A stretch of DNA of 64,000 nucleotides from Eledone cirrhosa (GCA_964016885.1 OZ024759.1:24800001-24864000); one strand, 5' to 3'; positions 15,526 to 63,190 are shown, counted from the first letter of the stretch. The notes: a model not told the origin generated them from the letters alone. Program-made: numbers and translations.

Positions 15526-15556
15526 GTAATATATATATATTGTTTTATTCTTTTAT

Positions 15557-22427: not shown

Positions 22428-22492
<65 letters not shown>

Positions 22493-22633
22493 GGTGCTCT
22501 AAAAAGGTAACTCCTGTGAATATCGGAGGTCAACTGATATATGCATACACACTCTTATATATATATTCGTGTGTGTGTGTGTGTGTAAAGTAATTTTTAA
22601 CTATCTTTAACTTTCTTTTTACAAACTTTGCAG

Positions 22634-24897: not shown

Positions 24898-25086
24898 GGA
24901 ACTCAAGCTGAATGGCAAATAGTATTCTACATCTCAGCTGCCGTCTATATATTTGGTGGTATATTTTACTTGATCTTTGCATCAGGAGAGATTCAACCTT
25001 GGTCAAAAAAATGTACAAGTTCTTCAGAGCCTAAAGTAGTGGAAGTTTCTTTAAATCCTTTGCTATCAGATCCAGCCAAAGTTTGA
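24898..25086 (+). CDS. SLC17-family transporter terminal coding exon
   Basis: tttcag|GGA...TGA; GTQAEWQIVFYISAAVYIFGGIFYLIFASGEIQPW...AKV*. The seven exons sum to 1035 nt in one frame. Confidence 0.95.
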   Translation, partial: GTQAEWQIVFYISAAVYIFGGIFYLIFASGEIQPWSKKCTSSSEPKVVEVSLNPLLSDPAKV

Positions 25087-25479
25087 TCCGGAAACATCTT
25101 TTTTTTTTCTTTAATTTTTTTTTTTTTTTTTTTTGTGATAAAATATAAAAGAAAATAACTGGAAAAACAAACCCCTCCAAAAAAAAAAACGAATAAATCG
25201 AATGAAAAACAAAACTGAAAAAAAAACTTTCCTCAATGCCATTCACGTACGTTCCTCACCTTTAATTCCATAATTTTCCTCCTGTTTTTGTTTTTGTTTA
25301 CTCTTGTTTTTATCTGTTTGTTTTTCATTTAGTAAGCCTTATATCAGACAAGAAGTCTGGCTGTCTGTTGGGACCATGTAAGACAAGAAGTCTTTTGGGG
25401 GCCCAGGCTGGACTAAATGTCTATCTATTTGGACCCATGTCAGACCAGAAGTCTGATGAGCTTCCTATCAAATAAGAAG

Positions 25480-27600: not shown

Positions 27601-28057
27601 ATCCCAATGTAAATCGGGAGGCAATCACTGTCTAAAATGTTACTCAATATGTTAATAGAGTATAGGTATATTCATTTTATTATAGAAAACTCTTCTACAG
27701 GACTAGAACTGTTTCATTTTTATAATACAATGAATATATACATATATACACCACCTCGCCTGCATGCATTTTGTTGTATTGTCAGCATTGGAAAGCTTTT
27801 CATCCAGTACTGAAGTGGCCATTGACAGTCATAGTTATATATATATATATATGTGTGAGTGTGTATGTATTCATGTATATATATATACACCCTTATAAAT
27901 ACTTATAATTTCATACAGAATCTTAAACATTTACCTTCATCACCCCTCCTCCACACAATATGTAAATTATATTGTTAACTTGTTCATTTGTTGACATTGG
28001 CATTATAGATTACTTTATTACCGTATTCTTCCATGTATTGCATGCAATCGTGTATAG

Positions 28058-28468
28058 CACATAGTACCCCTTTATGACCAGACATAACACATAGTACCCC
28101 TTTATGACCAGACATAACACATAGTACCCCTTTATGACCAGACATAACACATAGTACCCCTTTATGACCAGACATAACACATAGTACCCCTTTATGACCA
28201 GACATAACACATAGTACCCCTTTATGACCAGTCATAACAACAGTACCCCTTTATGACCAGTCATAACACATAGTACCCCTTTATGACCAGTCATAACACA
28301 TAGTACCCCATTATGACAGACATAACAACAGAACCCCTTTATGACCAGACATAACACATAGTACCCCTTTATGACCAGTCATAACAACAGTACCCCTTTA
28401 TGACCAGACATAACAACAGTACCCCTTTATGACCAGACATAACACACACCACCCCTTTATGACCAGAT
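28058..28468. repeat. 30-bp minisatellite, ~14 copies
   Basis: Unit acatagtacccctttatgaccagacataac. Confidence 0.95.
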
Positions 28469-28842: not shown

Positions 28843-31659
28843 TTACACACATATATATATATATACAAGAAGACAACCTTACAATAATGAGACCAGCAAT
28901 TTGCCCACTGGGACACATGATTTCATAAAAGCATTATACAACTACTTCTAAATCTAGAAGTGAGATTACTGTTGTTGTTGATGCTGTTATATTTCTTTAT
29001 TAACTCTGAAAGGGCAGTGGATTGGCAATATCGGTAGAGATTTGGAGACGATGCTTTGCAGCATTGAGTGACATCCCTTCAAATCCTGCCGAAGTTAGCT
29101 TTGCCTTTCATCCTTATGAGGCCAATAAAATAAAGCACCAGTAATGCACTGGGGTCGATTTAATCGACTTTCCCCTCTCCTTAAATTGTTGGCCTTGTGC
29201 CTAACTCAGAAATCATTATTAACTCTTAACTCTTTTGATACCTAACTGCCTAAAACGACCCCTGGTTCTATAATACTAAACTGTTTATTTCAGATTGTTA
29301 TTATTTATTTACAATCCTATCATAATTTTATGTAAACACTTATGATATTCTATGTTCTAAATATCAGGTAAATAATGAAAGTTACTAAATCCTTGGAAAT
29401 TCTCAATTATTTCCAATATTTTTTGATAAACATTGGCAAAGCCTTTGTTACAAATAGGGTAATGAAAGTGTTAACCCTTTAGCATTTACATTACTTTATT
29501 CTTGTGGTAAAGGCTTTATCTCACATGATATCGAATCTACAATATTTTGATGATGTTATTATTTATTTTGAGAACAATATTTTAACGTTGGTATACGCGG
29601 CTGGTTATAGCTGGTTTGAACAGAAAGAGGTGAGAGAATTCTGGCTGGATATCGCCGGTTTAATGCCCCAAAGCATATGGAATCACATTAAGAAGACATA
29701 CTTGGAAAGTGCAAAACAGAACTTTGACTACTTCACATTAAACATTTTCACAATGATCTGTCCACTTGTAAAATGACTATAAACATTTGAATTAACAAAC
29801 CTGATTTTATATATTTTCTGCAAAATCATTACAAGATGTTAAGGGACAATTAACAACCATACATGTGCAACGATATTTCTTGCATCACATTAAAGTCTTT
29901 ACTCTTATACTGCAAATTTTCACAACAATTTGTTTGCTAGTAAAGGTATTGTAAACGTTTGAAATGACAAACCTTATGAAAGATATCTTTTGCAAAATCC
30001 TTATAGGATGTTAAGAGTTACTATGGAAATGTAATGTCTTCTCATTGTGTACGTTTTTATTGCTTTGCTTTCTTATTCCATTTTAATTCCCTTTAAGGTC
30101 CTTGCCGCCCCTAATGTTTGTAGCAAGGACTCAACAATGGCAGCTCTTAACAAATATGTCATACTAGTTGAAAGAATTGATAAAATTTGTCTTATTACTT
30201 AGTCCCACATGTTGCATAGTAAATAATTTTGCTAGTCGGGCATTGCTGAATAAAAGCATGTGATGTGTGTAGAAAAAGTGGTTAGCTTCTGAAAAGTTGA
30301 ATACATGGTGTTGATCCAGTTCTTAGCTGGAAATATTTTTTCTTTTGCTTTTGCAATAATGCTCTTTGGAAAGAATTGAATATCACAGCCTCACATGCCC
30401 CCTTCTTTTAAAATACCAGACCTCTGTATAAAGTAAAGCAGAAATTAACAGTCATTGGTTTATTGCAGGTTGTCACACCTATGATTCTACAAAACTGAAT
30501 TTTTTTTTTCCTTTGATATGTGGTGGATATACAGTATATAAAAAAACAATAGGAAATACGAATATCAAAAGTGAAATCGGTGTAATATTCATAACCTCCA
30601 AAGTGAAAATATTGTAGCACCTCATTTATGTAGAATTTTGAACTTCATAAAAATCGGTGAAATATTGACCTCCAATATAAGCTAATCTCCCATTTTACCA
30701 TACATTTTTCATATATTTCTCTGCTTATATACGAGTATATATGGTATTAGATGGTGTTCACTATTACTTGGACACTACATTTTACGGTTTCAAATTCATA
30801 CTTGAATCAAAACTATTAATGTCTACTAAAAGTTTAATTAATCTATAAATGAAGTTATTGAAAAAAAAAAAAATTAACGAATTACAGTGTGGTTTTACAA
30901 CCCCTCCCTTCTAATACTTCCTAGAACTCCTTGAAAATTATAAGGTTATGTACTCTTATAAATTGGTCTAATATTCACCTCTGAAGTGAAAATATTGTAG
31001 CGCCTCATTTATGTAGAATTTTGAACTTTGTGAAAATTGGCAAAAATTGACCTCAAATATAAACTAATCTCTCATTTTTACCATCAATTTTTATTGTAGT
31101 GCACCTGAGCACTGTACACGATAATTTTCATTATTATTATTATATGTGAGATAAGCCTAATATGAATGGACTGTTTTACACATCCACTATTATTTTATAC
31201 ACAAACCAGTAACAAAGTTCAGATTTAATAGCTATATGTTCTGACATAATTGATTAACTCTAGTCTGAGGCTGTACATTTCTTAGTTTGACATTGTACCT
31301 ATTTCTGACAGTTAGGTAGATTCTGGGGTGAAGTTTTACAGTTCCTGCACCCATCTGGTGATTATTTCTGATAGGAGGACTCTGTTCTGAAGATGAACAC
31401 TGTTTAGATCTGGTACACATTTCTGATAGGAAGACTCTGTTCTGAAGGTGAACAGTTCTTATTGCCAGTTTCTTTCAGTTTAATATTTTTAATGACCTTT
31501 TTTATTACTATTTTGTTTTATTTTAATAGCCTCTTTATTGTCATTCTTGTTTAATCGATTCAATTGACATCACTTTTTTTTATTGTCTCATTGATAATAT
31601 TTTTTATCAAACATTCAATCACCATTTTGCATTTACTTCATAAATATATATATACATAA

Positions 31660-31920
31660 ATACAAATGAATATATGATAGGGATAAACACTGATACAAGT
31701 ATACAAGTGTTTGCATTGTAAATGACCAAGTTAGCTAGATTGAAAAATACTAATTAAAATAATACGGTTTGTTTTTATTGATTTTATTATTTTAAATCGA
31801 GACAGGCAAACCATATTATTTTAATTAGTATTTTTCAATCTAGCTAACTTGGTCATTTTCAATGCAAACACATGTATACTTGTATCAGTGTTTATCCCTA
31901 TCATATATTCATTTGTATTA
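31660..31920. repeat. Inverted repeat, ~105 bp arms with a ~50 bp spacer
   Basis: aatacaaatgaatatatgataggg...aaaataata versus tattattttaatt...ccctatcatatattcatttgtatt. Confidence 0.85.
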
Positions 31921-32211
31921 CACGGCTCAGAAATATCCCTTTCTTTGAGCTATTTATTTGTAAAAGACTATTTAAGTTTATAACTCTATATATATACATA
32001 AATATATATTTCAGAGGAAGTAACGAAAGGCTTTACATAGAATCATATATATATATGATTCTGTAATTTTAATAATGTTGTACCCATAACATATTATCTG
32101 TATCGGTACCATCTTTTTTTGATATTCTAATGCCAAATTTTCATTGAGTTGGTACAAATTCATTTGTATGTATGTGTGTATGTGTATGTATATATATATA
32201 TATACACACAC

Positions 32212-32561
32212 AATATATTAATAAATGGAAACTATATTTATAAAACCATAATTATTTTATTATATATATTTCAAGGGCGACCAAGCCAATCTTGGTGCGC
32301 TTTCATCAGATAAAATACAAAATATGTTTTATAAATAGTAACATAACCATGGAAAACAACCTTGACGATTGAAAATTCGCTGGATAGCGCACCAAGAGTT
32401 GCTTGGCTGCCCTTGAAATATATATAATAAAATAATTATGGTTTTATAAATATAGTTTCCATTTATTAATATATTGAATATTTACTCCAGTAATCTGTTG
32501 AGTGCTCTATACCAGTTATAAACTTTTAAGTTTGTTGGAATCCCAACAAATTAAATATATC

Positions 32562-32593: not shown

Positions 32594-32993
32594 GAGAGAG
32601 AGACCACTTTTAGCAATGGGTTAAAGTACGTGTGTATATATACATTCTTTAACCCATTGCTAAAAATAGTCTATGGGCCTTGCTTGAGGTAATTTTTAGT
32701 AAATCAACAATACCCGCTCCCCACCAAAAAATGTGTCCTTGTGTCTATAATAGAACTAATATTTCAAGCAGTGGAACAAAAACTATTATGATATATTCAA
32801 AGGAAAACTAAATATGAAGTAATTAAAAATAGAATAGCCAAGTTTTTAATTACAGATAATTAAAAGTACAGTCACTAAATTTTTCATTACCCTATTTCTA
32901 ATAACATACATGAAATTTAGATTAATTGATAAAGAATTTGGAGGGATTCACTAAATTTATTGGTTCATTATTAACCCTTTACATTACTCTGTA

Positions 32994-33905
32994 TCATCAT
33001 CATCATCATCATCACCGTTTTACGTCCGTTCTTCCACGCTAGCATGGGTTAGACGGGTTGTCCTGTTGTGTGCAGTGTCTGGTCAGCTGACCATGCCTTG
33101 CTCATACAGGAACTGATCTGGCTTGATTTCTACAGCTGGATGCCCTTCCTAACACCAACCTCATTTACAGTGAGTGCTGGGTGCTTTTTCGTGGCGCCTA
33201 CACGTCCACTTTACAGTGTGGGCTGGGTGCTTTTTTGCCGTGGCACCTCCACGACCACCTTGCGGTGGGGGGTGTGGGGGCATATTGTTTATATGCTTCA
33301 GCATGTACCCATGGGAGGTCGGGTACTCTGTATTACTGCGTGACGCCAGAAGTCACGGTCGTGTGTCATTGTCTTTGAGAGGTGTAATTGGGTAAGGTCG
33401 GCTTTTATCACCTCATCCCAGGTCATCTTGGGTCTCCCCACTCCGCGGTTTCCATCAACTTCTAGTGCTCTGCACCTTTTTATGCAGCTGTCATCCTTCA
33501 TACACATCACATGTCCATACCAGCGCAACCGCCTCTCCTGCACACAGCATTTGATTCCTCTTATGCTCAGTCTCTCTCTCAATTCATTTATGCTTTGTCG
33601 TTCACGTATATTACTGTTACACATCCATCGGAGCATGCAGGCTTCGTTTCTCTCTAATCTACGTAAGTCTTCCACCTTCAGCGCCCAGGTCTCACTACCA
33701 TGCAACATCGCTGTTCGGATACACGCATCATACAGTCTGCCTTTCATTCTGAGGGAGAAGCCTTTTGCAGCTAGCAGTGGTAGTAGTTCCCTAAACTTCT
33801 TCCATCCCGTTCTTACCCTAGTTATTGTACTTTCTGAACACCCACCTCCGTTGCTAATTCGGTCACCTAGGTAGCAGAAGCTGTCTACTGTTTCTACAGG
33901 GCCCT
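32994..33905 (-). mobile_element. 5'-truncated RTE-clade LINE (C-terminal ORF plus 3' tail)
   Basis: FCYLGD...GWKKFRELLPLL...KGRLYDACIRTAMLHGSETW...RLRWYGHV...GRPKMTW; ends in (ATG)n. Confidence 0.9.
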
Positions 33906-34322
33906 CCCAGAGATTGGTGGTACTTGTTTCCTGTGGCTGTATATACTATTGTATTTTTGCAGTAAAGGCTTTACCTCACATAATATTGAATCTATGAGAT
34001 TTTGGTAACAATACCTTATCATCAGTATGAATGGCCGGTTTGAACAGAAAGAGGTGAGAGACTTCTGGCCGGATACGGCTGGTTTAACCCTTTAGCATTT
34101 GTTTCTTTGGTCCAATGTGACAAGTTCCACATCCACTCGGTAAGTGAGTGAGGTCTATGAATTTGTCAATTCGGATAGAAAAAAGAAATTTTAATTAAAA
34201 AAAATTAAGTCAGTATTTTTAACATAACTTAAAATTTTCTTTTGATCAGTGTTATTTAAATTATGATGGAAAATTTTAATTTAGATATTTACTCATTAAG
34301 ATGGGTGGTTTTATGTCATGGA

Positions 34323-35682: not shown

Positions 35683-40620
<4,938 letters not shown>

Positions 40621-40629
40621 ATATAGACA

Positions 40630-43635: not shown

Positions 43636-44510
43636 TTTATGTCTGCTTGCAAGAGTGGGATCTGTCCTTTTCAGTACAGCATCTCTACATTCATCAAACT
43701 TCCATTGGGATTACTTGGCATATCTTCACCCAGCACATCAAATGGCCATACCAATCAACGTGGTCTTCTCTCCTGCACACTACAGTTTCTCTCTCAACTC
43801 TTCCATGTTTGATCGTTTACAAACACATATTGCTACATTAACTAGAGGAAGGGAGCTCTCAGGAGAGCTGAACAGCATATCTTCAGAGAAGGAACCCCCT
43901 CTCAAGCAAGAGTTTCGGCTGCAACTTCTTACACTCTAAAGGGCCTGAGCCGCATCCAGGTCATAATGCTTGGGTGTCCTTCTGCTAACATTTAACTATT
44001 TGCATAGTGGAAACTTGTTGAGTATTTTAACCATATGGAGATCTAGCTGGAAATCCTATCAGTTGCAAAGTATTGAGTACTCTGGTACGTTATGGTCTAC
44101 CTGGTTCCTTACCACACTTCCTTCGTTATATATTTATATATATAGTATATTTAAAATTTCATACACTTTTCATGTATGTGCAACCTTTGGTTTCGGGGTC
44201 CAGTTATGGCCACCACTGTCTAGGATTGGCTGCCCCCTCACGTTCATTACTTTATTTTATTATTTTTTATTGAAAAAATTATATAATTAAATAAAAATAT
44301 GTTTAATAAACTTTATTCCATACGAATTATACTAAATAAAATTTTCACTGCGAAAATACGAAAACGTGACTGAGAATGTGTGGCTAACTTTGAAAGGTAA
44401 CAGGTGCTGTTTTGAAATTCACGTAATTATTACCAAATTAAACTTTATTTTCTATATTTTATTAACTATTTCAACGTCCAATATGATTTATAAATGAATA
44501 TATGTATAAG

Positions 44511-44544
<34 letters not shown>

Positions 44545-44944
44545 TTAATTATAGAAATAAGAAAAGGTAAAAATTCTCAATCAAACGTGACAAGACATAC
44601 ACACCTCCAATTACACATTGTAGCAGAAAATATTGCTGTTTCCCTCTAAATATTTTTAATGGCAAGCTAAAACATTGTCGCAGGTAATAGTGAAGCTAAG
44701 GTGCTGTAATATTCATGTACATTTATTAGTATTGTGTAATATTTCAGTAAAAGGGGCCACCAATAACTATAAAAGTTTGTTGTCAGCTACCCCAGCCACC
44801 ACGAACTTTTGAATACAAATGTTAGTTCATGTAATTTATTTTTACCCTTGTTTTCATATGGTGGTATTTGTCTAGGGTCTTTGATAACATTTATTTATAG
44901 TGTGTTTTTGTGGGGTGGTGCCGGGTGTAATATGATTTTTCTCA

Positions 44945-45352
44945 TACATTTTTTCACGCTCAGAGTTGCTGAAGCATGGAACAAACTGCCTGCGTCAATT
45001 GTTAGCTGCCGAGACACTGCATCCTTTAAGACACTCATGCTTCCCAAAATACGCCAAAACTACACCCGATGTACCCCTTCCATACACATGCACACATGTG
45101 TGTATCATGACTCGTGCACTGTTCATTTTACTGATGTTTGTGCATTGCCCTATGTAATGTACATGCACTTTTTTGATGAGTTGTGGTGCACCTGGGCACT
45201 GTGCACAATATTTCGTTATTGTTATTATATCATGACTCATACACTGTTTATTTTCCTGACATTTGTACATTATTCTATGTACTATACATGCACCTTTGAT
45301 GAGTTGTAGTGCACCTGAGCACTGTACACAATAATTTTATTATTATTATTAT
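44945..45352 (+). mobile_element. CR1/L2-like LINE 3' end
   Basis: HFFTLRVAEAWNKLPASIV; duplicated 3' UTR; (ATT)n tail. Confidence 0.75.
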
Positions 45353-45629
45353 TTCTCGGTCTGTCATGTCAGACTAACGAAGTTCATTTTTGTTCATAGA
45401 TATTCCAACTGGGGCTATCTCGTGTTGTTTAGTATTTCTGACATTGTATGTCTAGAATTACATGGTGTAATACGTCAGTATTTAACAGAATATAGAGTAG
45501 AGTGTAATTTGAGGGAGATATAGCTGCTATGTTTAGCAGTGAAAGGCTACCACTTCGCTGGCACCGCATGTAGATGTTATTCAGTTGCGTAGCTACAGTT
45601 CGGCCCATCTTCAAATAGAATGACTTAAG

Positions 45630-46550
45630 GAAGTATTCACTGAGGGGCCTTATGCTGCTTTCGCCAAGCTAGGCAAAGTGAGATTGGTGAGAGAGCAGGT
45701 GGAGGTATCTACAGCAGAAATACGGTGGTTGGTTACCCTAGCAGAGTTGACGGGGGAAAACCTTGATAGGGCTGTGGAGATGGGGTTGGTGAAGCTCCAA
45801 CAGAAAAATGACCATGAGCGAGCTAATCACACAGGTCCGTGTAGTGACATGAGGCATAGAGTGGAATGTTGCAATGCTAGCAGTCGACAGCGATTGACAA
45901 AAGTCCCTGTGAACACTCGGCAGCGGATATTCAAAGACTAGTGTTCCAGGGTCCACACATGGCAAGGAACTGAAGAGAGCCGAAGTCAGATATAATTTGG
46001 TATCAATGTAAGTGAGCAAGCCACTTAGGAATGTTCGGGTTAACCACCAGAGGTGATGGACGGAGGGACTCAAGCTGCAAAGAGAAAAGATGGACACACT
46101 GGTATTTGGGAGGTGAAATGAAGTCCTGGAACTGGGCACTGACATGGACAATGTGTGGGGAAATTGGTGGGCCACTATCCAATCACAGAGTGGTTTTGAA
46201 CAGCATGCAGCTATGTCAAGAGACTAGCGGACAGGGTGAGCTGGGTAGGAGAGGGTAAAGGCAGATGACCCAGTAAGAGGAAGCTGATAGGTCCCAAAAT
46301 CGGAGAATGGGATCGTATGATATGATATCAGCAGCATAGCACTAGAGGCTTACTCTAGTAATAGGCGGTGTTGAGGCCGCAGCCTGACTCAGGAAGAAAG
46401 GAGGACTGTAACCACATCGGCGCCCTGAGATGGAGGCTGTGACTCAGAGTTGAGGAGGTTGTATACGATGCATCATATGGGAGTGGATAGGACCCTGTTC
46501 CTAGCCAGGAAAGTTGATTCCAATGTAAGCAGACAAAGTGGTCGGAAGTT
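45630..46550 (-). mobile_element. Heavily decayed GC-richer LINE-like segment (possible endonuclease region)
   Basis: Abrupt GC rise and broken ORFs with weak resemblance to APE motifs; not firmly assignable. Confidence 0.3.
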
Positions 46551-47119
46551 GTGACATATTAGATAATATTGTCAAACACACATTACTATTCTAAAAGGAC
46601 ATTAGACAATACAGTCTTCAACATATCTTTCTTATATCACCTACCAATATTTTAGGACATTAGACAATACAGTCTTAAGTACAACTTTCTCATATTGTAC
46701 TCTATTGATCTAAGACAAAACCATCTTAACTCTTTAACATTGACATTATTTTATATTTACTATTGTATTTTTATGGTAAATACTTTATTCCACATAATTA
46801 TCTCGCATGATATTGAATGTATGAGCTTTTGATTTATTTTTAGAACAATACCTTAACATCAGTATGAGCAGCTGGTTTGATAAGGGTGAGAGAATTCTGG
46901 CAGGTTTAACCCTTTAGCATTTACATTGCTCTATATTTACTATTGTATTTTGACAGTAAACACTTTATTTCACATAATATCTAATCTTTGAGATTTTAAT
47001 AATATTTATTTTGAGAACAATACCTTAACATAAGTATGAGCAGCAGGTTCAAACGGAAAGAGGTGAGAGAATTCTGGCCAGGTTAAATACATCATTATTG
47101 TATCACATAGTTTTCCCCA

Positions 47120-48310
47120 AGTAAACTGAACAGAGGGACTGGATGTAGTAGTATAGTAAGTAAGGCAAGGCAGTTGGACCTTCGGGGATAGTTGCCAAGA
47201 TGCTGAAAGAATTTGGGATGGTGGGTCACATGATAGCCACCCTACAAAATGGTGCTATACCCAATGACTGGTGTAGCAGTATCGTCGTCAACTTCTACAA
47301 GGGCAACGGAGATACTCTAGACCAAGGAACTATAGAGGCATCAAGTTGGTTGACCAGGTGATGTAGGTCACAGAAAGAGTTATAGCACAGCTGATTAGGG
47401 ACCAAATTAAACTAGATGTGATGCAGTTTGGATTTGTGGCAGGTAAAAGTACCACAGATGCCATCTTCTGTTTGAGCCAACTGCTGGAGTACCCAGTTGA
47501 AAGGTAAACCCCTCTACTTGACATTTGTTGACCTGGAGAAAGCTTTTAACAAAGTCCCCTGTTCCATTATCTGGTGGGCTCTTAGAAAATTAGGAATAGA
47601 TGAGTGGCTTGTGAAGGCTGTTCCAGCCATGTATAGAGGAACAGTCAGCAAGGTTAGAATTAACAATGGCTATAGTGAAGGTTGGTGTCCATCAGGGCTC
47701 TGTTTTTAACCCTCTCCTGTTTATTATCGCTCTGCCGTCAATAACAGAAGAGTTTAAGACTGGCTCCTCATGGGAACTTCGTATGCAGGTGATTTAACCC
47801 TTATAGCTGAATCTATGGTAGAACTAGAGAAGAAATTCCAAATGTGGAAGCAAGGCCTAGAATCAAAAGGTCTTAAAGTCATCATGTCAAAGACAAAAGT
47901 CCTAGTACGTGGAAAGGAAAATAGGGCCCAGATTCCCACTGGGAAGTCGCCTTGCTCAGTGTGCAGGAAAGGAGTAGGTTGAAATTTCTTCCTATGTTAC
48001 AAATGAAAACTATGGGTAGTGGGATCTCTGAGAGGTTAGGTGCATTAAGTAACAAGAGCTCACAGAATACTAGCTCCTTCAAATGCCCAGAGGGCTCTGT
48101 AGAAATAATCAACAGTTTCCATTATCTGGATGACCAAACAGCAGTGGAGGAGGGTGTTTCAAAAGTAGAGTAGCCAGATTAAGAACAGGATGGAAAAAGT
48201 TCAGAGGGATCAGACGCAGTGTAAAAGAAAGGAGACTGTGATGCGTATGAAGGGTGACAGCTGTAAAAAAAGGTACAGGTGGGATGAGGTGATAAAAGCA
48301 GACCTTGCAC
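47120..48310 (+). mobile_element. Decayed RTE-clade LINE reverse transcriptase
   Basis: KAVGPSGI, NYRGIKL, QFGFVAGKSTTDAIF, FVDLEKAFNKVP, YAGDL, GLKVIMSKTKV, GWKKFR; multiple frameshifts. Confidence 0.9.
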
Positions 48311-49939
48311 AATTACACCCGGTAAAGTGGAAGTGACACAACAAAAACACCCAGCCCAACCTGTGAAGGGGTTGCAACAAAAGTGCCAGTTCACATTGCG
48401 AAGTGGTTGTTTTGGTGTCATGACAAGCAGCACACAGTCCACACTGTAAATGTGGTTGGTGTTAGGAAGGGCATCCAGCCATAGCTGGTTTCTACACCAG
48501 GGTGCCCTTACCATAGTAATTCTTTGTAATTTTAGAATTTCACTAAAATTCATAATAGAAATATATTTACTCCGAATTACTTACCTTCACCAATGTTGTT
48601 TATATAGATATACACTTGCAATTCCTCATTATTGTAGGAATTTGTGATGTATTGTTACACCTTACATTACCATAAATATACATTAATCAGTTTCCCATAG
48701 CTGCTGTTCTATATGTTTTACTGTGTCTCCATCATGACATTTCAGCGAGCGTTAGAAATGTTTAATATTTAATTTAATTTGGTTCCTATTCAGCTGTGCT
48801 ATAACTCTGTGCCCTTCATGACCTGGTCAACCAACTTGTACAGCTGGTCCCTCTCTTGGGTCAATATGTGACAAACTTTCTTCTTCTCATTCAGTAATCT
48901 TTCATAATGGCACTTCCATGCTACCTTCTTTTCAGCGTCATTGATATCATAATTTTTCAGGAACTCCTATTGCTCCTCTATTCGCCCTTCCTTGCTGTTG
49001 AAGGCGTCGATCAACATACTTCTAAATTTGTTACTATTTCATGGGTCTTTTAACTTCATACTCGTCTCCTCTAGGTTGGCTTCTATTGTCGGGTTCTTCT
49101 AGCTAACTACTGTATATGTATGTATATATATACTTATTGGTTTCCACCTGTCTATCTGGCTTGACCCATTGAAAATATGTTTAAACATTGCTCCAGTCCT
49201 GGTAGAATCAGTGCCCTTTAATCCTTCCTGTCCAGAATGTTAGCTCTATGGAACTCCCTGACAATATCATAACCTCAAATGTAGACTTTTAAAACATTTC
49301 CAGCTGTGACCATCCTGTGTTTATATGAGTATCTAAGACTATATCGTCATAAGTATTCTTATTTGGTTTAGAATGTGTGAGAGCCCAAGTATTTGGTGGC
49401 AAATTGAAAGAGTCGATAGAATGGTTTGCGGTATTTGTTTCGGCTCAATGAGTTCAACTTTGCATTTCATCCATTTGAGTTCGATAAAAAAAAAAGGTAC
49501 CAGTCTAGTACTGGGCACAATTCTTCCTCTCTATCCTATCCTACTCTGGAAGAAATCTGATGTATACTTCTTCCTGTGTAGTTAGCAGCCGAAAGTGTTC
49601 TTTTAAAAGAAAAAAACTTTATTTCATGTTTCTCCAGTAAACTCAATAGTTAGAGAGTTAATCCTATCCATGGATAGGGAGAGTCTGGTACTCAGTTTTC
49701 ATATTTTTATTTCCAGAAACAAGTATATTTACTTACATATTAATTGTATATATGTAAAAAAATACTAGTAGTTTCAAAATTAATATATATATATATAGAG
49801 AGAGAGAAACGGAATGAGAGAAAGGTAACACAGAATACATTTTGAGGCGTGTTATCTCACCTTCTTTCCGTTTCTATGATTTTTTTTTTAAATAAATAAA
49901 ATTTTATCTATAAGTATGACTAATTTACTTAGTAAAATT

Positions 49940-50081
49940 GTGGCGATGCACGTAGCGGTTCGGACTTCGTCGCCTACCTAGGTATGGCGTGACACATTCT
50001 ATGTGTCCGAAGATCGAATCGTTGCGAGGGCATGCGGCCTCGGCAGCCAGGACTATTTGAAGGCGCGAGCAATCGTTTTTT
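49940..50081 (+). pseudogene. Deleted mirror copy of the structured RNA-like segment
   Basis: Same sequence as 56739-56920(-) but missing 10 nt at the 5' end and ~30 nt in the 3' hairpin; retains TCCGA, which pairs with TCGGA. Confidence 0.4.
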
Positions 50082-52151
50082 ATTAGAATTATTTCCCCTT
50101 TATGGAACTCTTCTGTTACTTTTTTTTTTTATTGATTTCCAGGTTTTAAAAAAGATCATCTTGGATATTACGTTCTTTTAAAGAGGTATGTAATGTTTTC
50201 TTTGTATACAATATAACTCTCTACACACACCACATCATTATGGACATTTTATTCGTAGAAACTAAACCTCTTTATACATATATTTTCTTTATTGACATAA
50301 TTCGATTTAGACCTTTCCTTTTTAGAGACATACACATTCTTCACTAGACACATACCTTCTCAATATACAGCTACATTTTTATTATCTTCTCTATTTCTCT
50401 TGTTATCAATAAGAACATAGGGAGCTGGAGTTGTGAAGTGTGTGGTCGTCTACTGCTCTCTACATCTGGGTACATCAATACTAGGGGTTGCATAGGGAAA
50501 CGGCAATCATTTGCAAAGATTAAGCAATCAATATATATGTATACGCATTCATATATGGAAGTGTGCATGCATGTATATATATGTGTGTCTTTCGATATAG
50601 ATAAGTATATATGAATATACTGGCAGAGTCACACTTTACTATCCCAAGTATCAAGTACTCTTGAATAATGGTATATATATATATACACACACACACACAA
50701 AACAAAGTATAACAAAGGAAATCCTGTAGTTACCCCCTATTTGTATACATATATATATATATATATATATCATAACAAGTTATCGTTATAGGTGATCCAG
50801 TTAGAGGTTGTGAGTACTCCGTATTGTGGATAGTTTTAGTGTATGGTGTTGTTGGACACAACAAGAGGTTTCCTTAGTTAGGTAGCGAGTTCGCGAGAAT
50901 TCCCATGCAGGTTATTCTTGGAGTAATAATAGTGAAAGAGTGATGAATGACATGGTCGGCTGTACAAAAAGGATTTATTTATAGTATTAACAATTGTTTC
51001 ATTGATCAGGTGAGTCAAAAGGTCGCTAATCACTCGAAGTTGCCTCAGTCGACCTTAAATACAGTGTTTACCTCTGATCAGAGGTAAACTGTATTTAAGG
51101 TCGAGTGATTAGCAGCCTTTAGACTCACCTGGTCAATGAAACTTTTGATAATACTAGAAATAAAATCTTTTTGTACAGCCGACCATGTTATTCTTCAATC
51201 TTACACATATATATCAGGGTAAAGACCCTCACGATTGACCATGGGATTTTCATCTAGAAGTTCCCCTCCGAGACCGGGCAAGGTTGTTTGTGGAAGACCA
51301 GCTGTCTTCCCTCTCTACGCCACTGATGTTGTCCAACTCATTTCGACAGACTGATCTGGAGAAACGTGAGACAACGCTAGTAAATCTTTATTTTATATTG
51401 ATGAGTTTCATTTAAACATTTTCTGTTTATTTCCCTCCATAATGTCAGCAATAATTAACCAATAGTTTTGTTTAGCTGCTGCCCCACCTCCACGTTATGT
51501 TGTATTTCCAATGTAATGCCACCTCACATATTTCTCGGTCATATCAAATAAAATTTAGCGTATTTCTATATTATTTAAGTTGGCAAATAAGATAACATCT
51601 CTGTCTGACGACCGATCCAGACGTATATTATTATTGTCTATGATCCAGAAATCTTTGGTAATGGAGTAGTTATATTTTGTGTTGTTCACTTTCTAATATA
51701 TATATATATACGAGAAAACTCATCGCTATATACCCCCCACCCCACAGACATATATATATATACACACATACACACACACAGACACTTATATATATACACA
51801 CACACAGACATATATATATACGAGAAAACTCATCGCTATATACCCCCCACCCCACAGACATATATATATACGAGAAAACTCATTGCTATATACACACACT
51901 CACACACACATCATCATCATCATTTTACGTCCGCTTTTCCCTGCTTGCAAGGGTGGGACGTGTCTTATTCAGCACAGCATCTCTCCACTTGTCACGCTCC
52001 GTCGTCATCTCCACCGTGAGCTTCAGCGATCTGAGGTCTGATCTCACCACCTCCACACAGACACACACACACAGGCACTTATATATACACACACACACAT
52101 ATATATATATACGAGAAAACTCATCGCTATATATACACACACACACACACG

Positions 52152-52209
<58 letters not shown>

Positions 52210-52564
52210 GACGCACACTTATATATATATATACAGTTGGTAAATAATATACTTCCTTCTTATCTTCGTGTTGGAGAACTTTCTCTTTGTCAACATGTCC
52301 CAGTCAGTCGTTCGAGTGTCATACTAGATGTGCAGTCGTGCTTTACAATCATGAGTTCGATTCTCACGTGTAGCAACGTTCTGAAGGACTTGTGCTTGAT
52401 TCTGATAGTTACTTTACCATGGCAGAATCTCCTTTGGTCTTGCTATATTCTGGTTATTAATATTAACCAGAATCTTTTGAGAACTGTCGTCTCTGGCCAG
52501 AGTGAATATTTCACCCGTCTACATAACATAGAACCATTTACATTCTTAGTTTCTTTCTTTTTTT

Positions 52565-52600
<36 letters not shown>

Positions 52601-53170
52601 AATATACATGTTTAGTTTAATATTCTTTTAATTGATAATGTATGTAAATGACTTTCATTCCTTTTTACAGATGTCCAGCCATTAAGGTCATATGCTGTGT
52701 TATTTGCCGTAACAAGTGGGAATGTCGTAGTTTCTTTTAATAAATATACGAGAAAACTCATCGCTATACTCACACACACATCTTTTAATAAAGAAAGTTT
52801 ACATATTATATACGAATTGTATTCAGTTTATTTTGATAAAAATGAATAAAGAAAGTTTAGATCTTATATACGAATTGTGTTCTGTTTATTTTGACAAAAA
52901 TGAATAAAGAAATCAAGAGTCTAGAAGAAACCGAGTAAGTGTTTACGTAAGTGGTTACGAAGTTTCTAAATAAAGAAACTAAGAGTTAGATAAAGTTTCA
53001 TGTAAGAAACTGAGAATGAACAAGTTTCTAAATAAAGAAACTAAGAGGTAGATAAAGTTTCTTGAAAGAAACTGAGAATAATGAAGTTTCTAAATAAAGA
53101 AACTAAGAATGTATTTGAAATTATCGAAAAAAAAAAATCTATGTAATGAGGCTCCATTTTTTTTTTTATT

Positions 53171-53628
53171 AAAGGGAGGTAACTCTGTAATATTTTGAGC
53201 GAATTACCTCCCTTTGAAACACCTTCGTCACCGTCGTTACCACCGTCGGCACCTTCGTAACCGTCGTCACCATTACCGCCGCCACCTGGTGGCGGAGGAA
53301 AAGATTCCGACGAAGACGAAGGTGCACCGCCGTCTTCGTCGGTATCTTTACCGCCGCCACCTGGTGGCGGAGGAAAAGATTCCGACGAAGACGAAGGTGC
53401 ACCGCCGTCTTCGTCGGTATCTTTACCGCCGCCACCTGGTGGCGGAGGAAAAGATACCGACGAAGACGGCGGTGCACCTTCGTCTTCGTCGGAATCTTTT
53501 CCTCCGCCACCAGGTGGCGGCGGTAATGGTGACGACGGTTACGAAGGTGCCGACGGTGGTAACGACGGTGACGAAGGTGTTTCAAAGGGAGGTAATTCGC
53601 TCAAAATATTACAGAGTTACCTCCCTTT
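53171..53628. repeat. GC-rich nested-palindrome core
   Basis: 75-bp unit built from two inverted ~37-bp halves; axes at 53287, 53324.5, 53362, 53399.5, 53437, 53474.5 and 53512; flanking hairpins aaagggaggtaa...ttacctcccttt at 53171-53215 and 53584-53628. Confidence 0.95.
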
Positions 53629-54569
53629 AATAAAAAAAAAAAATGGAGCCTCATTACATAGATTTTTTTTTTTCGATAATTTCAAATACATTCTTAGTTT
53701 CTTTATTTAGAAACTTCATTATTCTCAGTTTCTTTCAAGAAACTTTATCTACCTCTTAGTTTCTTTATTTAGAAACTTGTTCATTCTCAGTTTCTTACAT
53801 GAAACTTTATCTAACTCTTAGTTTCTTTATTTAGAAACTTCGTAACCACTTACGTAAACACTTACTCGGTTTCTTCTAGACTCTTGATTTCTTTATTCAT
53901 TTTTGTCAAAATAAACAGAACACAATTCGTATATAAGATCTAAACTTTCTTTATTCATTTTTATCAAAATAAACTGAATACAATTCGTATATAATATGTA
54001 AACTTTCTTTATTAAAAGATGTGTGTGTGAGTATAGCGATGAGTTTTCTCGTATATTTATTAAAAGAAACTACGACATTCCCATTTGTTACGGCAAATAA
54101 CACAGCATATGACCTTAATGGCTGGACATCTGTAAAAAGGAATGAAAGTCATTTACATACATTATCAATAAAAAGAATATTAAACTAAACATGTATATTA
54201 AGTGTGTGTGTGTGTGTGTGTGTCCAAAAAAAGAAAGAAACTAAGAATGTAAATGGTTCTATGTTATGAAGACGGGTGAAATATTCACTCTGGCCAGAGA
54301 CGACAGTTCTCAAAAGATTCTGGTTAATATTAATAACCAGAATATAGCAAGACCAAAGGAGATTCTGCCATGGTAAAGTAACTTTCAGAATCAAGCACAA
54401 GTCCTTCAGAAGGTTGCTACACATGAGAATCGAACTCATGATTGCACATCTAGTATGACACTCGAACGACTGACTGGGACATGTTGACAAAGAGAAAGTT
54501 CTCCAACACGAAGATAAGAAGGGAAGTAGAAGTATATTATTTACCAACATATATATGTGTGTGTGTGTC

Positions 54570-54635
<66 letters not shown>

Positions 54636-54942
54636 CGTGTGTGTGTGTGTGTGTGTGTATATATAGCGATGAGTTTTCTCGTATATATATATATGTGTGT
54701 GTGTGTGTCTGTGTGGAGGTGGTGAGATCAGACCTCAGATCGCTGAAGCTCACGGTGGAGATGACGACGGAACGTGACAAGTGGAGAGATGCTGTGCTGA
54801 ATAAGACACGTCCCACCCTTGAAAGCAGGGAAAAACGGACGTAAAATGATGATGATGATGTGTGTGTGAGTGTGTGTATATAGCAATGTGTTTTCTCGTA
54901 TATATATATGTCTGTGTGTGTGTGTATATATATATATATGTC

Positions 54943-54981
<39 letters not shown>

Positions 54982-56738
54982 GTCTGTGGGGTGGGGGGTA
55001 TATAGCGATGAGTTTTCTCGTATATATATATAAGTGTCTGTGTGTGTGTATGTGTGTATATATATATATATATGTCTGTGGGGTGGGGGGTATATAGCGA
55101 TGAGTTTTCTCGTATATATATATATATATTAGAAAGTGAACAACACAAAATATAACTACTCCATTACCAAAGATTTCTGGATCATAGACAATAATAATAT
55201 ACGTCTGGATCGGTCGTCAGACAGAGATGTTATCTTATTTGCCAACTTAAATAATATAGAAATACGCTAAATTTTATTTGATATGACCGAGAAATATGTG
55301 AGGTGGCATTACATTGGAAATACAACATAACGTGGAGGTGGGGCAGCAGCTAAACAAAACTATTGGTTAATTATTGCTGACATTATGGAGGGAAATAAAC
55401 AGAAAATGTTTAAATGAAACTCATCAATATAAAATAAAGATTTACTAGCGTTGTCTCACGTTTCTCCAGATCAGTCTGTCGAAATGAGTTGGACAACATC
55501 AGTGGCGTAGAGAGGGAAGACAGCTGGTCTTCCACAAACAACCTTGCCCGGTCTCGGAGGGGAACTTCTAGATGAAAATCCCATGGTCAATCGTGAGGGT
55601 CTTTACGCTTATATATATGTGTAAGATTGAAGAATAACATGGTCGGCTGTACAAAAAGATTTTATTTCTAGTATTATCAAAAGTTTCATTGACCAGGTGA
55701 GTCAATGCTGCTAATCACTCGACCTTAAATACAGTTTACCTCTGATCAGAGGTAAACACTGTATTTAAGGTCGACTGAGGCAACTTCGAGTGATTAGCGA
55801 CCTTTTGACTCACCTGATCAATGAAACAATTGTTAATACTATAAATAAATCCTTTTTGTACAGCCGACCATGTCATTCATCACTCTTTCACTATTATTAC
55901 TCCAAGAATAACCTGCATGGGAATTCTCGCGAACTCGCTACCTAACTAAGGAAACCTCTTGTTGTGTCCAACAACACCATACACTAAAACTATCCACAAT
56001 ACGGAGTACTCACAACCTCTAACTGGATCACCTATAACGATAACTTGTTATGATATATATATATATATATATGTATACAAATAGGGGGTAACTACAGGAT
56101 TTCCTTTGTTATACTTTGTTTTGTGTGTGTGTGTGTATATATATATATACCATTATTCAAGAGTACTTGATACTTGGGATAGTAAAGTGTGACTCTGCCA
56201 GTATATTCATATATACTTATCTATATCGAAAGACACACATATATATACATGCATGCACACTTCCATATATGAATGCGTATACATATATAGTGATTGCTTA
56301 ATCTTTGCAAATGATTGCCGTTTCCCTATGCAACCCCTAGTATTGATGTACCCAGATGTAGAGAGCAGTAGACGACCACACACTTCACAACTCCAGCTCC
56401 CTATGTTCTTATTGATAACAAGAGAAATAGAGAAGATAATAAAAATGTAGCTGTATATTGAGAAGGTATGTGTCTAGTGAAGAATGTGTATGTCTCTAAA
56501 AAGGAAAGGTCTAAATCGAATTATGTCAATAAAGAAAATATATGTATAAAGAGGTTTAGTTTCTACGAATAAAATGTCCATATTGATATGGTGTGTGTAG
56601 AGAGTTATATTGTATACAAAGAAAACATTACATACCTCTTTAAAAGAACGTAATATCCAAGATGATCTTTTTCAAAGAACCGGAAGTAAAACGAAAAAAA
56701 GCAACAGAAGAGTTCCATAAAGGGGAAATAATTCTAAT

Positions 56739-56920
56739 AAAAAACGATTGCTCGCTCTCTCCAGGAGTCAGGCCAGCATATAACCAGCCTTCAAATAGTC
56801 CTGACCGCCGAGGCCGCGTGCCCTCGCAACGATTCGATCTTCCGACACATAGAATGTGTCACGCCATACCTAAGTAGGCGACGAAGTCCGAACCGCTACG
56901 TGCATCGCCACGCGAAGCCA
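56739..56920 (-). ncRNA. Candidate structured Pol III RNA or tRNA-Arg(TCG)-like pseudogene
   Basis: CpG-rich segment ending in T6; acceptor-like stem CTTCGCG/TGCGAGG, TCGGA-CT-TCG anticodon arm start, and several hairpins. Confidence 0.4.
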
Positions 56921-57201
56921 CAATTTTACTAAGTAAATTAGTCATACTTATAGATAAAAATTTTTTTTAATTTTTTTAATTATAGAAATGCAAAGAAAGC
57001 GAGATAACACGCCTCAAAATATATTCTGTGTTACCTTACTCTCATTCCGTTTCTCTATATATATATTAATTCTGAGACTACTAGTATTTTGTACATATAT
57101 ACAATTAATATGTAAGTAAATATCCATGGATAGGATTAGCTCTCTAACTATTGGGTGTACTGGAGCAATATGAGATAAAGTTTTTTTCTTTTAAAAGAAC
57201 A

Positions 57202-58053
57202 GTCTTCCAAGAATGTAAGTAACCATTGTGGGTTCTAAATATCAAGAATGTAAAGAAAGTGTCTAAGGTTCGAATCTAAGTAAGTCAAGAAAAAATGTTG
57301 TAAAAAGTATCTAAGGTTCTATTCCAACTATCTTCAAGGGTTCTAAGAATCTAAGTTAGAAGGTTCGAATGTAGTAAGAAGTATCTAAGCTCCTATTCCA
57401 ACTGTCTTCTTAGAAACCTTGAAGGTTACTTACCTTCTTGGAAGATAGTAAGATTAGAACCTTAGATACTTCTTACTCCATTCTAAACTTGACTCTTAGA
57501 TTCTAACCCATGATAATTCTTGACTTACTTAGATACTTTCTTTACATACTTGGAAGACAGTTAGATGCTTCTTACTACATTCTTGACTTAGATTCGAACC
57601 TTTGATACTTCAAGGTTCTTGGAAGACAGTTGGATTCGAACCTTCAATACTTTTTTTTACATACTTGAAGGTTCTTGATACTTAGATGGTTACATTCTTG
57701 GACGACTGTTGGATTCGAACCCTTAATGACACTTTTTACATTGTTGATTTTTATTGATACTTATTTTTCATTCCCTTTATGTTACTACTTTTGGACAATT
57801 GTTACATTCGAACCCTTGATGGTTCTTTCTCTAATATTTCTTTCCTTTTCACATTATTGATATTTTCTATTCTCTTTCCTTAGATTGGAACCATTGGTGA
57901 TACTGTCTATTTTTGGAGCGACTGTTGGATTTGAAACCTTGATGAGGCTGTTTAAACATTTTTAGTTTCTTTGTGTCATTCATTTTTGTCAAAATAAACT
58001 GAACACAATTTGTATATAATATGTAAACTGTATTCATTTTTGTCAAAATAAAC
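57202..58053. mobile_element. Degenerate foldback-like module with short subrepeats, related to the inner arms of the palindrome
   Basis: Shuffled motifs (ggttcgaatc, tatctaag, cttccaag, aagaatgt) flip orientation near 57420; 57976-58053 matches 53895-54003 (ttcatttttgtcaaaataaac...gtatataatatgtaaact). Confidence 0.55.
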
Positions 58054-59885
58054 CGAAACCAAAGGTTGCACATACATGATAAGTGTATGAAATTTTAAAT
58101 ATACTATATAGATAATAATGAGTTGACAGACCCAGCATATTTATCAATGCTAGGACCGGTTGTATCTCAGCGTACTCAATGGGCAATGTAAGATACATAT
58201 ATATATATATAAGATATATACAAAGATATATATATATATATACTAGATTTATATACTATATAGAGAGAGATACGAAGTCTCATCACGAAAAATAAAATTT
58301 GTCTCATTTTGAAATTCGCATTTTTATGTCTCTTTCGGGCCATGGGTTCCTTCTTTCACAATAATTCTACCTACCGTATGGGATTCCATTGTTTTCACAG
58401 AATGGAAACCTGCAGTATCAATATAACATATATGTTACGTACTGCATTGGACAATCAATTTACGAACAAATGGCGTCTTCGAACGTAACACATTCGTAAG
58501 TTGGAAACTTACTGTATATATATATCTTGTGTTGCCACACAACTGTTCCACATATTTTTTTTGTAAAATCATGGGTGAGTGGTAAATCGCGATCTTGGAC
58601 AAAATCTAATTGTCTGGCTCATTAAAAAAATATATAATTTATATATAGAACTGTTTCATTCAAAAGAAATCATATATATAGTTTAATGGATTGTAACCTT
58701 ACGTTACTGTTGGCTCACCAACTTGAGCACTTGATGCGCTATTGATTCCAGAGTCAAGCCCAATCGATACAGATTGAACCTTCAGGTGATCAAACGTGCA
58801 TCACACCTTAATAAACTTAATGATGAGATACTCACCCCTAGTTCTTACTTATTATTAACTAACTGGCCCTGTGCCGTCAAATTGTAATATGTATACATAA
58901 AATAATAAAAAGAAATGTTTGTTTGTTGGTTGGTTCCTTCACACTCACTCACACAAATGATACAAACATACAAACCTTTCTCAGTCGACGTTATCAACGC
59001 TTCCTTTCTAAGTCAATGTTATCAGCCCTTCCTTTCTCAGTTGACGTCATCAGCCCTTCCTTTCTCAGTTGACGTCATCACCCCTTCCTTCTTCAGCCAT
59101 CTCTTGTGATAGATAAAAACACAAGCATATTAGATATTAGTAATAGATTATATATACATACTCTAGGTGAACATGTGATTCTCCATGTTACGCATACTTC
59201 CTAAAAGTTAACTGAAACAATCAATGGTTCTATCTGGAACCAAACATAATCAATAAATCAAGTAAGAAACTCAAAAAGACAACAAATATATTTAAAAAAT
59301 AATTTATTCATATATGGAAATCTGTGTTAATGATTGTAGCCAACTGACTACAACTGCGGTTTTTTTTTCAAATCTCTCCCATGTAGCAAACATCTCTTAT
59401 ATACAACTGGTAGACTGTACAGTCTGATGTAGGAATATTTCACAAAACTGTAACTTAAAAATTGATAAAAATGATCAAAGAGCAATTACAGGAGAGAGAG
59501 AAAAAAAAGGGGGAAAAAAAAAAAACACATAAAAAAAATTGTACCATTGATGATACAAGAGCAATTTTGTTTTAGACATAAAAAAATATATAAAGGAAAT
59601 TTGAAGATACAATTTTACATGGTTTTGATAGAGAGAAATATTGTCAAGAGACATTTAGGCTTTACTAGATTACTAAGAAATATTTAAACAATGTCTGTTT
59701 ATTGTTGTTGTTGTTATCTGAAAGGTATAACCTTTTGTTTCGCATTGGCTAATATTTATTACTGATTGTGACAATGTGACAAAAATGAACTAGTAAGGGG
59801 CAACAAGGCAACTATCTCTCCTTCCGGTCACAAAGAAAACTGTTTATTTTGCCCTATAGTTTGATAACCATTCTTTTCCTCAGTG

Positions 59886-62200: not shown

Positions 62201-62609
62201 TGTCTATTTACCACATTGCATGTTACATACTCCCAAGTGATCGTATACATTAGTACCACTACAACTATTACATAAATCATGTCATGCAAATCTACCTTGA
62301 CTGGATTTATTTACCATTTTGTAAGAATGATACACTAAGTCCAGAAAATACTATCACTTCCTTGTGACTAGTGTGAAGAAGAAGCACACAAAGTATTTAT
62401 TCTATGAAATCATCACCATCATCATAATTACTATTATTATTGCTTTAACAGAGATTGTCTATAGAAAGTGTCTAGCACATCATTGGTAAGATTTCTGGAA
62501 ATTTCTACAGCAACATGTGGCCAGATATTTGCTCTCTCTATCTCATTTTACACTCATCATTTCCTGCTCCAGCTGTGCCAATGACACAACCACCTGTCAA
62601 GTGTCGTAA

Positions 62610-63190
62610 TGATGTAGCACTGGTGCCACAATAAATTACAGCCAGTACACTCCGCAAAGTGGTAGTGTTGGTGACATGATATAACATAGCCAGTACTCTG
62701 TAAAGTGGTAGCATTGGTGACATGATATAACATAGCCAGTACTCTGTAAAGTGGTAGCATTGGTGACATGATATAACACACCATGAAAGGTGGTGTTACT
62801 GGTGACATGATAACACACCCAGTACACTCTGTAAAGTGGTAGCATTGGTGCCACAATACAACATAACCAGTACACTCTGTAAAGTGGTAGTGTTGATGAC
62901 ATGATATAACACACACTGTAAGGTGGTAGTACTGGTGACATGATAACACATGTAAGGTGGTAATACTGGTGTCACAATAAAACACAGTAGTACAGTGGTT
63001 GGCATTAGAAAGAACATCCATCTAGAAAACCAAGCCAAAAGTGGAGCAAGGTGCAGTCTCTTAACCAGTGTAACTTCAGTACCATGACAACTTGCCAAAC
63101 TGCAGACACCATGGCAACGTGTCTAACCTCAGTACCATGACAATCTGTCTAACCTCAGACACATGAAAAAGATGTTAAATGGTGATGATG
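62610..63190 (+). repeat. SINE remnant with tandemly amplified internal domain
   Basis: Repeated ccagtacactctgtaaagtggtag...ggtgacatgatataac (reverse complement related to the 51-bp unit), followed by tggttggcattagaaagaacatccatc and a (TGA)n tail. Confidence 0.65.

Follow-up and report, generated by a model that had tools for sequence, protein, structure and literature searches.

A 7.6-kb palindrome in an Eledone cirrhosa assembly carries sequence features of a fold-back inverted duplication

Fold-back inverted duplications have been described in human and yeast genomes. In the human cases reported in PMC3907307, a non-duplicated spacer is flanked by 2-8 bp of inverted microhomology, and the yeast fold-backs presented in PMC10622511 initiate at imperfect repeats of 5-11 bp, in two of three wild-type cases at a repeat with a 35-bp spacer. 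Sex-chromosome palindromes are another class of large mirror structures; according to the account in PMC8327919, their arms are at least 8 kb long and at least 99% identical and contain gene families under selection, and arm-to-arm gene conversion in palindromes is established. Here we describe a 7.6-kb palindrome located at 49596-57201 in a stretch of 64,000 nucleotides from the octopus Eledone cirrhosa (GCA_964016885.1 OZ024759.1:24800001-24864000), hereafter called the window, and compare it with these systems. No description of palindromes in octopus genomes was found in the literature searched, a partial coverage with most subscription papers outside it.

The palindrome is present as a feature of the assembly. 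It is covered by a single BLAST self-match (49596/57201, E=0.0), with exactly the limits of the initial annotation, and global alignment of one arm against the other gave 3,652 aligned columns, 56 mismatches and 24 indels. The window contains no N gap. Among seven listed sequencing rows, four, all from one study, contain part of 49200-53400 (shares of 0.46, 0.40, 0.34 and 0.15) and none is of RNA; they may come from the source sample and are not counted here as evidence. The arms had been described as spacer-less and meeting at 53399/53400. Unrelated sequence is indeed absent between them, but the perfect pairing goes no further inward than 53349/53450, leaving a central 100 bp with 8/50 pairs mismatched.

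49596-53399: left arm with its half of the core, 3,804 bp (self-alignment)
53400-57201: right arm with its half of the core, 3,802 bp (self-alignment)
49596-53349, plus strand: left arm outside the asymmetric core, putative original (template) copy (alignment and 5/5 polarisable differences)
53450-57201, minus strand: right arm, putative inverted copy, ending at a 4-bp microhomology with the flank (alignment)
53249-53550, no strand: GC-rich array of hairpins, made up of eight ~37.5-bp units in alternating orientation, with a 75-bp tandem period in 3.3 copies
53350-53449, no strand: asymmetric 100-bp centre, putative fold-back loop, in which 42/50 pairs form (-48.3 kcal/mol as single-stranded DNA)
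53450-53455, plus strand: 6-bp alpha-to-beta switch within a hybrid unit, putative fold-back or crossover point

The units of the core succeed each other in the order gamma-, alpha+, beta-, alpha+, beta-, alpha/beta hybrid+, alpha-, gamma+. Of 36 bases, 5 distinguish alpha from beta and 9 distinguish gamma from each of the two. The region 53150-53450 folds far better than shuffled sequence (z=-15.6). The perfect stem of the palindrome that stops at 53349/53450 is 193 bp long. A perfect palindrome would call for alpha- at unit five and pure beta+ at unit six. Read from the left, the array continues into a third alpha unit and, at 53450-53455, goes over to the first beta unit in reverse complement; from there on, the sequence mirrors all that lies to the left. 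At the base of the 100-bp loop 16/18 pairs form, the 6-bp switch interval included. A hybrid unit with such a switch is what would be left by a 3' end that, from within the third alpha unit, folded back by about 100 nt and was extended along its own strand. The order of the core units is one putative fold-back away from a plain tandem array. The junction is observed directly; we infer the fold-back event from it, and other routes would leave the same junction.

The core units have further properties. The motif CCACCAGGTGGCG occurs four times in the core, on the minus strand at 53280, 53355 and 53430 and on the plus strand at 53507, facing outwards; it may resemble the CTCF core motif, a likeness for which a literature search gave no support. 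Translation of the G-rich strand over 53249-53590 gives, for each core unit, a Gly/Asp-rich repeat of 12-13 codons with alpha, beta and gamma variants, and the 21- and 75-bp periods of the core region are multiples of three. The units may descend from a low-complexity coding repeat, for which a homologue search was empty. A 149-aa Pro/Gly open reading frame (ORF) over the core was rejected as a gene, having no Pfam match and being a consequence of the repeat symmetry. A 34-nt core pattern had no exact match in viral contigs, and 48 metagenome matches to a 20-mer of the core were discarded as chance, being only 20-23 bp long in 48/48 loci.

The outer end of the right arm carries a second junction.

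57198-57201, plus strand: 4-bp microhomology at the right junction, where the flank repeat unit is cut
57202-57640, no strand: older degenerate palindrome of the right flank, about 69% self-complementary, apparently truncated on its left
57960-58062, plus strand: more copies of the 58-bp repeat of the arms, 80-87% identical, inverted relative to the left arm

Degenerate repeat units are found in the right flank at 57552, 57616, 57695 and 57920. The right arm ends by cutting an inverted copy of this flank unit, the last four bases being common to both; the chance of at least four shared bases at random joins in the region is 2.4%. The left end shows no comparable cut and no mark of a native state either, and a repeat resembling a short interspersed element (SINE) stops about 30 bp before it. 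No target-site duplication (TSD) was found at 49596/57201, where the flanks are unrelated. The 9-mers common to the 57202-57640 palindrome and the arm repeats were not above background. When the right flank (6.8 kb) was compared with the left 49.6 kb of the window, the only matches were a 52-bp pair and dispersed or tandem repeats with 64-86% identity. Since inverted homology does not resume beyond the arms, two collinear alleles are an unlikely source of the structure.

Five differences between the arms could be polarised by comparison with other copies in the window: two in an element resembling a miniature inverted-repeat transposable element (MITE), one in a 20-bp motif and two in the SINE-like repeat. 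All of them (5/5) are derived in the right arm; a sixth site, 51997, was uninformative and was excluded from the count. This polarity is suggestive of the right arm being the copy (two-sided p about 0.06). Furthermore, the divergence between alpha, beta and gamma units, the 57202-57640 palindrome and the inverted 58-bp repeats are, as sequence patterns, indicative of older inversions at the site.

The best mechanism for these features would be a fold-back inverted duplication within a decayed transposon-like unit, later homogenised patchwise, a proposal to which we give about an even chance. The locus would first have carried an array of alternately inverted ~37.5-bp units, and this array is itself observed. 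A DNA end broken or stalled in the hairpin array would then have copied 3.75 kb of its own strand: its 3' end, located in the third alpha unit, would pair with a beta unit about 100 nt upstream and be extended, producing the hybrid unit with its 6-bp switch (the observed core junction) and the imperfect 100-bp loop. After 3.75 kb, synthesis would have switched back downstream of the core via the 4-bp microhomology (the observed right junction), with deletion of part of the older palindrome. Divergence between the arms would subsequently have reached about 5%, after which arm-to-arm conversion or hairpin-templated repair could have re-homogenised two of the inner blocks seen in the alignment. 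Finally, the mismatched centre would lessen cruciform extrusion, so that the palindrome persists. The data collected in PMC7999016 indicate that palindrome instability rises with a short or absent spacer and with high identity, and that, in eukaryotic cells, inverted Alus separated by a 52-bp spacer no longer stalled forks frequently. By analogy, a centre of 100 bp in which 16% of the pairs are mismatched may be tolerated, though 42/50 of its positions can pair.

At the level of sequence, the locus has the features of the fold-back class: the inverted copy adjoins its template, the non-duplicated 100-bp centre is bounded by short inverted homology (the 16/18 pairs), and the distal junction combines a 4-bp microhomology with a cut repeat unit. 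The palindrome would work like known fold-back inversions, sharing with the human and yeast events described in PMC3907307 and PMC10622511 an inverted copy, a non-duplicated centre, imperfect inverted homology and microhomology at the far end. As opposed to these, it measures only 3.75 kb, lies in an interstitial position, shows no sign of a terminal deletion or a dicentric stage, and has as its seed a tandem hairpin array rather than a single short repeat. With the sex-chromosome palindromes of PMC8327919 it shares mirror arms with identity tracts and a structurally labile centre. It falls outside that class in size (arms of 3.8 kb), in identity (95-100% by block, with the 56 mismatches and 24 indels given above) and in gene content, as the arms have no recognisable gene.

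The divergence between the arms is arranged in blocks.

49596-50238, plus strand: outer block, 26/492 substitutions outside simple repeats (5.3%) against 56583-57201, with 10 indels
50239-51690, plus strand: near-identical block, 2/1,359 non-repeat columns different (0.15%)
51691-52720, plus strand: microsatellite-rich block, 10/687 substitutions outside simple repeats (1.5%)
52721-53349, plus strand: inner block without substitution, 0/585 columns outside simple repeats

The initial annotation had proposed a gradient of divergence from centre to edge, with homogenisation restricted to the centre and fading outward. This is not what the alignment displays: from edge to centre the values run 5.3%, 0.15%, 1.5% and 0%, and inward of 50238 divergence has no trend with distance from the centre (Spearman p=0.25). 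The blocks 50239-51690, which lies 1.7-3.1 kb away from the centre, and 52721-53349 do not differ in homogeneity (Fisher p=1.0), and 51691-52720 is more diverged than either (p=0.0006 and p=0.002, respectively), these comparisons using block limits drawn after inspection of the data. A placement test that is independent of the limits also found the 13 inner substitutions to be clustered (p=0.013). Over the whole arms, 38/3,123 columns outside simple repeats differ (1.2% mean), corresponding to 23 transitions and 15 transversions. The arms also differ by indels of 51, 31, 13, 10 and 7 bp, several of them at short direct repeats or a hairpin. The 51- and 13-bp segments are present in the left arm and the 31-bp segment in the right one. 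The 51-bp segment absent from the right arm starts inside a short perfect palindrome, CCTATCCATGGATAGG (49662-49724), and ends at a 3-bp microhomology. These differences look like mutations rather than read errors.

Other parts of the earlier description fared better. The alignment contains the 13-bp indel near 52335, the change of gatagtt to gaaagtt (at 52406) and the differences in microsatellite length. The arms had been called essentially identical for about 650 bp on either side of the core; with all columns counted, 52721-53349 has 0/629 substitutions and one homopolymer-length difference. The outer portion is diverged and each arm lacks sequence there, as stated, its length being about 640 bp (to 50238) instead of about 550 bp.

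Several observations weigh against a fold-back followed by conversion. The mosaic requires at least two separate conversion episodes. Inversion arrangements are expected to show their highest divergence at the breakpoint and a lower divergence inside, in a mosaic of blocks. An identical core junction would result from a fold-back during library preparation. The derived bias towards the right arm (5/5, p about 0.06) is a further difficulty, as arms of equal age predict none. The loop observed here, 100 bp long and 84% self-complementary, is far shorter than the sequenced spacers of human fold-backs, which measure 766-70,466 bp in the cases of PMC3907307. The mean arm divergence of 1.2% equals the heterozygosity given for Octopus vulgaris, 1.22%, in 10.1101/2023.05.16.540928. 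Lastly, the palindromes of the first Adineta vaga assembly are presented in PMC8494291 as mis-scaffolded haplotypes.

Some of these points fit an assembly artefact. If the animal were heterozygous for an inversion of an internal segment (arm, core and an unseen part), or had two related copies, an assembler could enter one allele, turn in the quasi-palindromic core with the aid of fold-back chimeric reads and exit through the other allele. Arm divergence at the level of species heterozygosity and a block mosaic that is highest at the would-be breakpoint are compatible with this path. Fold-back reads exist: PMC12870357 puts them at about 0.6% of Oxford Nanopore Technologies (ONT) genomic reads and finds hardly any in HiFi data, and such artefacts are also reported from amplified DNA (PMC6218980). 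However, only short stretches match exactly between one orientation of an unfolded core and the other, alpha and beta being different at 5/36 bases, and this is too little for an ordinary overlap; a chimeric path through fold-back reads would need to outvote the true reads. The window has no gap, and neither the inversion nor the missing segment has been seen. The likeness to the mis-joined haplotypes of A. vaga AV13 (PMC8494291) lies in an arm divergence near heterozygosity; here, as opposed to AV13, there is no gap, the flanks are not like collinear alleles and the junctions bear signatures at the base level. We regard an artefact of this kind as unlikely, though still a serious contender. 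With all the non-artefact readings taken together, the sequence evidence makes it probable that the palindrome is real in the animal.

A heterozygous inversion could also yield a real palindrome. In an inversion heterozygote, recombination of an alpha unit from one arrangement with a beta unit from the other would join arm A to an inverted arm B and delete the rest, so that the differences between the arms would be old allelic differences and conversion would be unneeded. The same junctions would be produced, and the 1.2% mean and the mosaic would be explained without repeated conversion. This route needs an earlier inversion with a breakpoint at the outer end of the arm, as well as a crossover placed inside a 6-bp run of perfect identity, and neither parental arrangement is seen; we consider it rather improbable.

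That the palindrome is a fold-back chimera of a single molecule, formed by ONT sequencing or whole-genome amplification and copied into the assembly, is extremely improbable. Its centre is a strong hairpin (the z of -15.6 given above) and artefacts of this type are documented in PMC12870357 and PMC6218980. The 38 substitutions with their transition excess, the 51-, 31- and 13-bp indels and the two different unique flanks largely refute this origin. These differences, together with the fold-back and microhomology signatures at the core and right junction, bear out the earlier view that the locus is not a simple read chimera.

The palindrome lies inside a larger unit, and its arms contain several repeat families.

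44144-44196, plus strand: the left of two inverted 53-bp sequences, a putative terminal inverted repeat (TIR) of a transposon, starting with AG in a TA-rich context
58053-58105, minus strand: right member of the pair, with one mismatch (52/53 identical)
50932-51206, no strand: MITE-like self-palindrome (the MITE label being tentative), with a mirror copy at 55619-55891
51710-52767, plus strand: 20-bp motif with microsatellite tails, five per arm (10 matches, 0 in 100 shuffles)
52787-53110, plus strand: 58-bp and 31/62-bp tandem repeats adjoining the core, with a mirror copy at 53690-54013

The sequence of the 53-bp pair has 2 matches in the window and 0 in 100 shuffles. The palindrome is probably contained in the 14-kb unit that this pair bounds, and which would be a decayed DNA transposon. 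Depending on where the ends are placed in their TA-rich context, the sequence at 44144/58105 would allow a TSD of 2 bp (AT), of 4 bp (TATA) or of 6 bp with a 5/6 match. Because the pair starts with AG in TA-rich flanks, the TSD is ambiguous and the superfamily is not assignable. Polinton/Maverick elements, whose hallmarks are genes for a protein-primed polymerase B, an integrase and capsid proteins, have TIRs of hundreds of bp, as against the 53 bp found here. A 6-bp TSD is listed for them among DNA transposon TSD lengths in PMC10045372, and 5/6 bases match at 44144/58105, in TA-rich flanks. Polinton Pfam families, transposases and viral domains were absent from the frames scanned over 44150-58150 (excluding minus 47150-48400 and plus 48300-48400). 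The interval that separates the left TIR member from the arm contains a decayed reverse-transcriptase gene, a DUF7047 fragment and other dispersed repeats. The first gives an RVT_1 match at 47.5-47.9 kb (E=1.4e-9) within a decayed retrotransposon piece, 47130-48480. The DUF7047 match (46150-46245, E=3.5e-8) lies in a frame full of stop codons, within a repeat of no assigned class that spans about 45.4-46.5 kb. Just inside the left TIR, at 44308-44330, an 8-bp word of the 58-bp repeats has its sole occurrence outside the arms, a weak hint of a shared subterminal motif.

In animal TIR elements, internal duplications usually come from internal breaks repaired off nearby templates, as discussed in PMC8277862. 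The unit described here resembles the Pack-TIR and foldback transposons of that source in being TIR-bounded, with internal breaks, local templates and microhomology junctions. It differs from Pack-TIR elements in that its filler is an inverted copy of its own interior, 3.75 kb long against a median of 224 bp (PMC8277862), and that the TIR-bounded unit is deduced from one 53-bp pair. A multi-copy foldback-type transposon with TIRs of 3.8 kb and inner tandem repeats, or two mobile units placed head to head, would explain the mosaic by exchange among family members. The arms begin with TGTT and end with AACA, inner tandem repeats of 31 and 58 bp are present, a TIR-like pair brackets the locus, and the Drosophila FB4 TIR is itself described as repetitive and often rearranged (PMC8277862). 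This reading is nevertheless quite improbable: no TSD is found at 49596/57201, the right end interrupts a repeat unit and is no clean insertion, host repeats are nested inside the arms, and no transposase domain appears in the frames scanned.

The 20-bp motif is confined to the arms within the window, and its copy at 52748 sits inside a short insert between direct repeats of about 12 bp. This may be a sign of local copying or of retroposon tails, either older than the duplication or spread by conversion. No Pfam family was detected in the right arm (12/12 six-frame readings). The candidates P0001 and P0002 were rejected as decayed genes of the arms, with 0 Pfam families. P0001 had 0/151 candidates among longer proteins, none of the 33 viral-contig sequences matching its pattern was a relative, and its five phmmer matches were spurious, being bacterial surface proteins with summed weak matches of 26-29 residues to repeats. 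No Rfam match in the palindrome was above the gathering score; all 55 matches by E-value, below threshold, comprised 53 microRNA models, one small Cajal body-specific RNA (scaRNA) and one small RNA (sRNA). There is no ribozyme among them, leaving a Penelope-like end unsupported. Parvovirus-type replicative dimers have hairpin ends and flip/flop junctions; mirror arms of about 4 kb, a GC-rich imperfect hairpin and neighbouring AT-rich repeats recall them, whereas the arms here are full of host repeats and have no viral protein domain or viral-contig match. Coding remnants of NS1/Rep or capsid proteins were not found in the arms, either in the Pfam frames or among viral contigs. On this sequence evidence, no function is indicated for the palindrome and no gene is implicated.

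As an extension of the fold-back mechanism, the hairpin array might be a reusable palindrome seed belonging to an octopus DNA-transposon family, a possibility that we consider doubtful. Each round of fold-back would add an inverted unit, leave a tolerated imperfect centre and re-copy the flanking host DNA, and the family would make and renew kilobase palindromes at many sites. The alpha, beta and gamma units, the 69% palindrome of the flank, the inverted 58-bp repeats and the blocks of 5%, 1.5% and 0% would then be successive rounds at this site. If real, the locus would preserve, in compact form, a natural history of repeated fold-back at a single site in an animal germline. It would show that a palindrome of several kilobases can last with a loop no longer than 100 bp and 84% self-complementary, and would be a case in which tract-wise homogenisation of arms can be counted in a mollusc. 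If it is an artefact, hairpin arrays would be flagged as sites where assemblers swap haplotypes. The biological weight is modest either way, since no gene or function is implicated.

The rest of the window is rich in microsatellites and dispersed repeats. A sialin (SLC17) gene lies on the plus strand at 10963-25087, with seven matched exon stretches covering residues 178-521 of the Octopus sinensis protein; the exon near 22636-22875 is 99% identical to O. sinensis sialin. The palindrome is located 24.5 kb downstream of the end of this gene. Its exons cannot serve as proof of flank contiguity, as the gene ends near 25087. A (TA)n/TATG microsatellite array of 4.9 kb (35684-40625) was assembled gap-free. 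Minisatellite arrays are found at 12870-14825 (49 bp), 16546-17924 (48 bp), 28054-28467 (30 bp) and 62606-62986 (about 46 bp), and the 48-bp array is related to the one at 62.6-63.0 kb at about 73%, in inverted orientation. Other short spacer-less palindromes occur at 495-722, 21285-21338, 31659-31919, 32211-32476 and 32608-32665, with 81-96% self-complementarity; such structures are common in the window and are probably MITE-like elements. A weak zf-RVT match at 18.4 kb (18392-18859, E=0.023) is below the cut-off, and a retrotransposon-like ORF without Pfam match extends over 33298-33945. Two marginal Rfam tRNA matches, at 2066-2123 and 5975-6066 (29.3 and 31.4 bits), are probably the heads of tRNA-derived SINEs.

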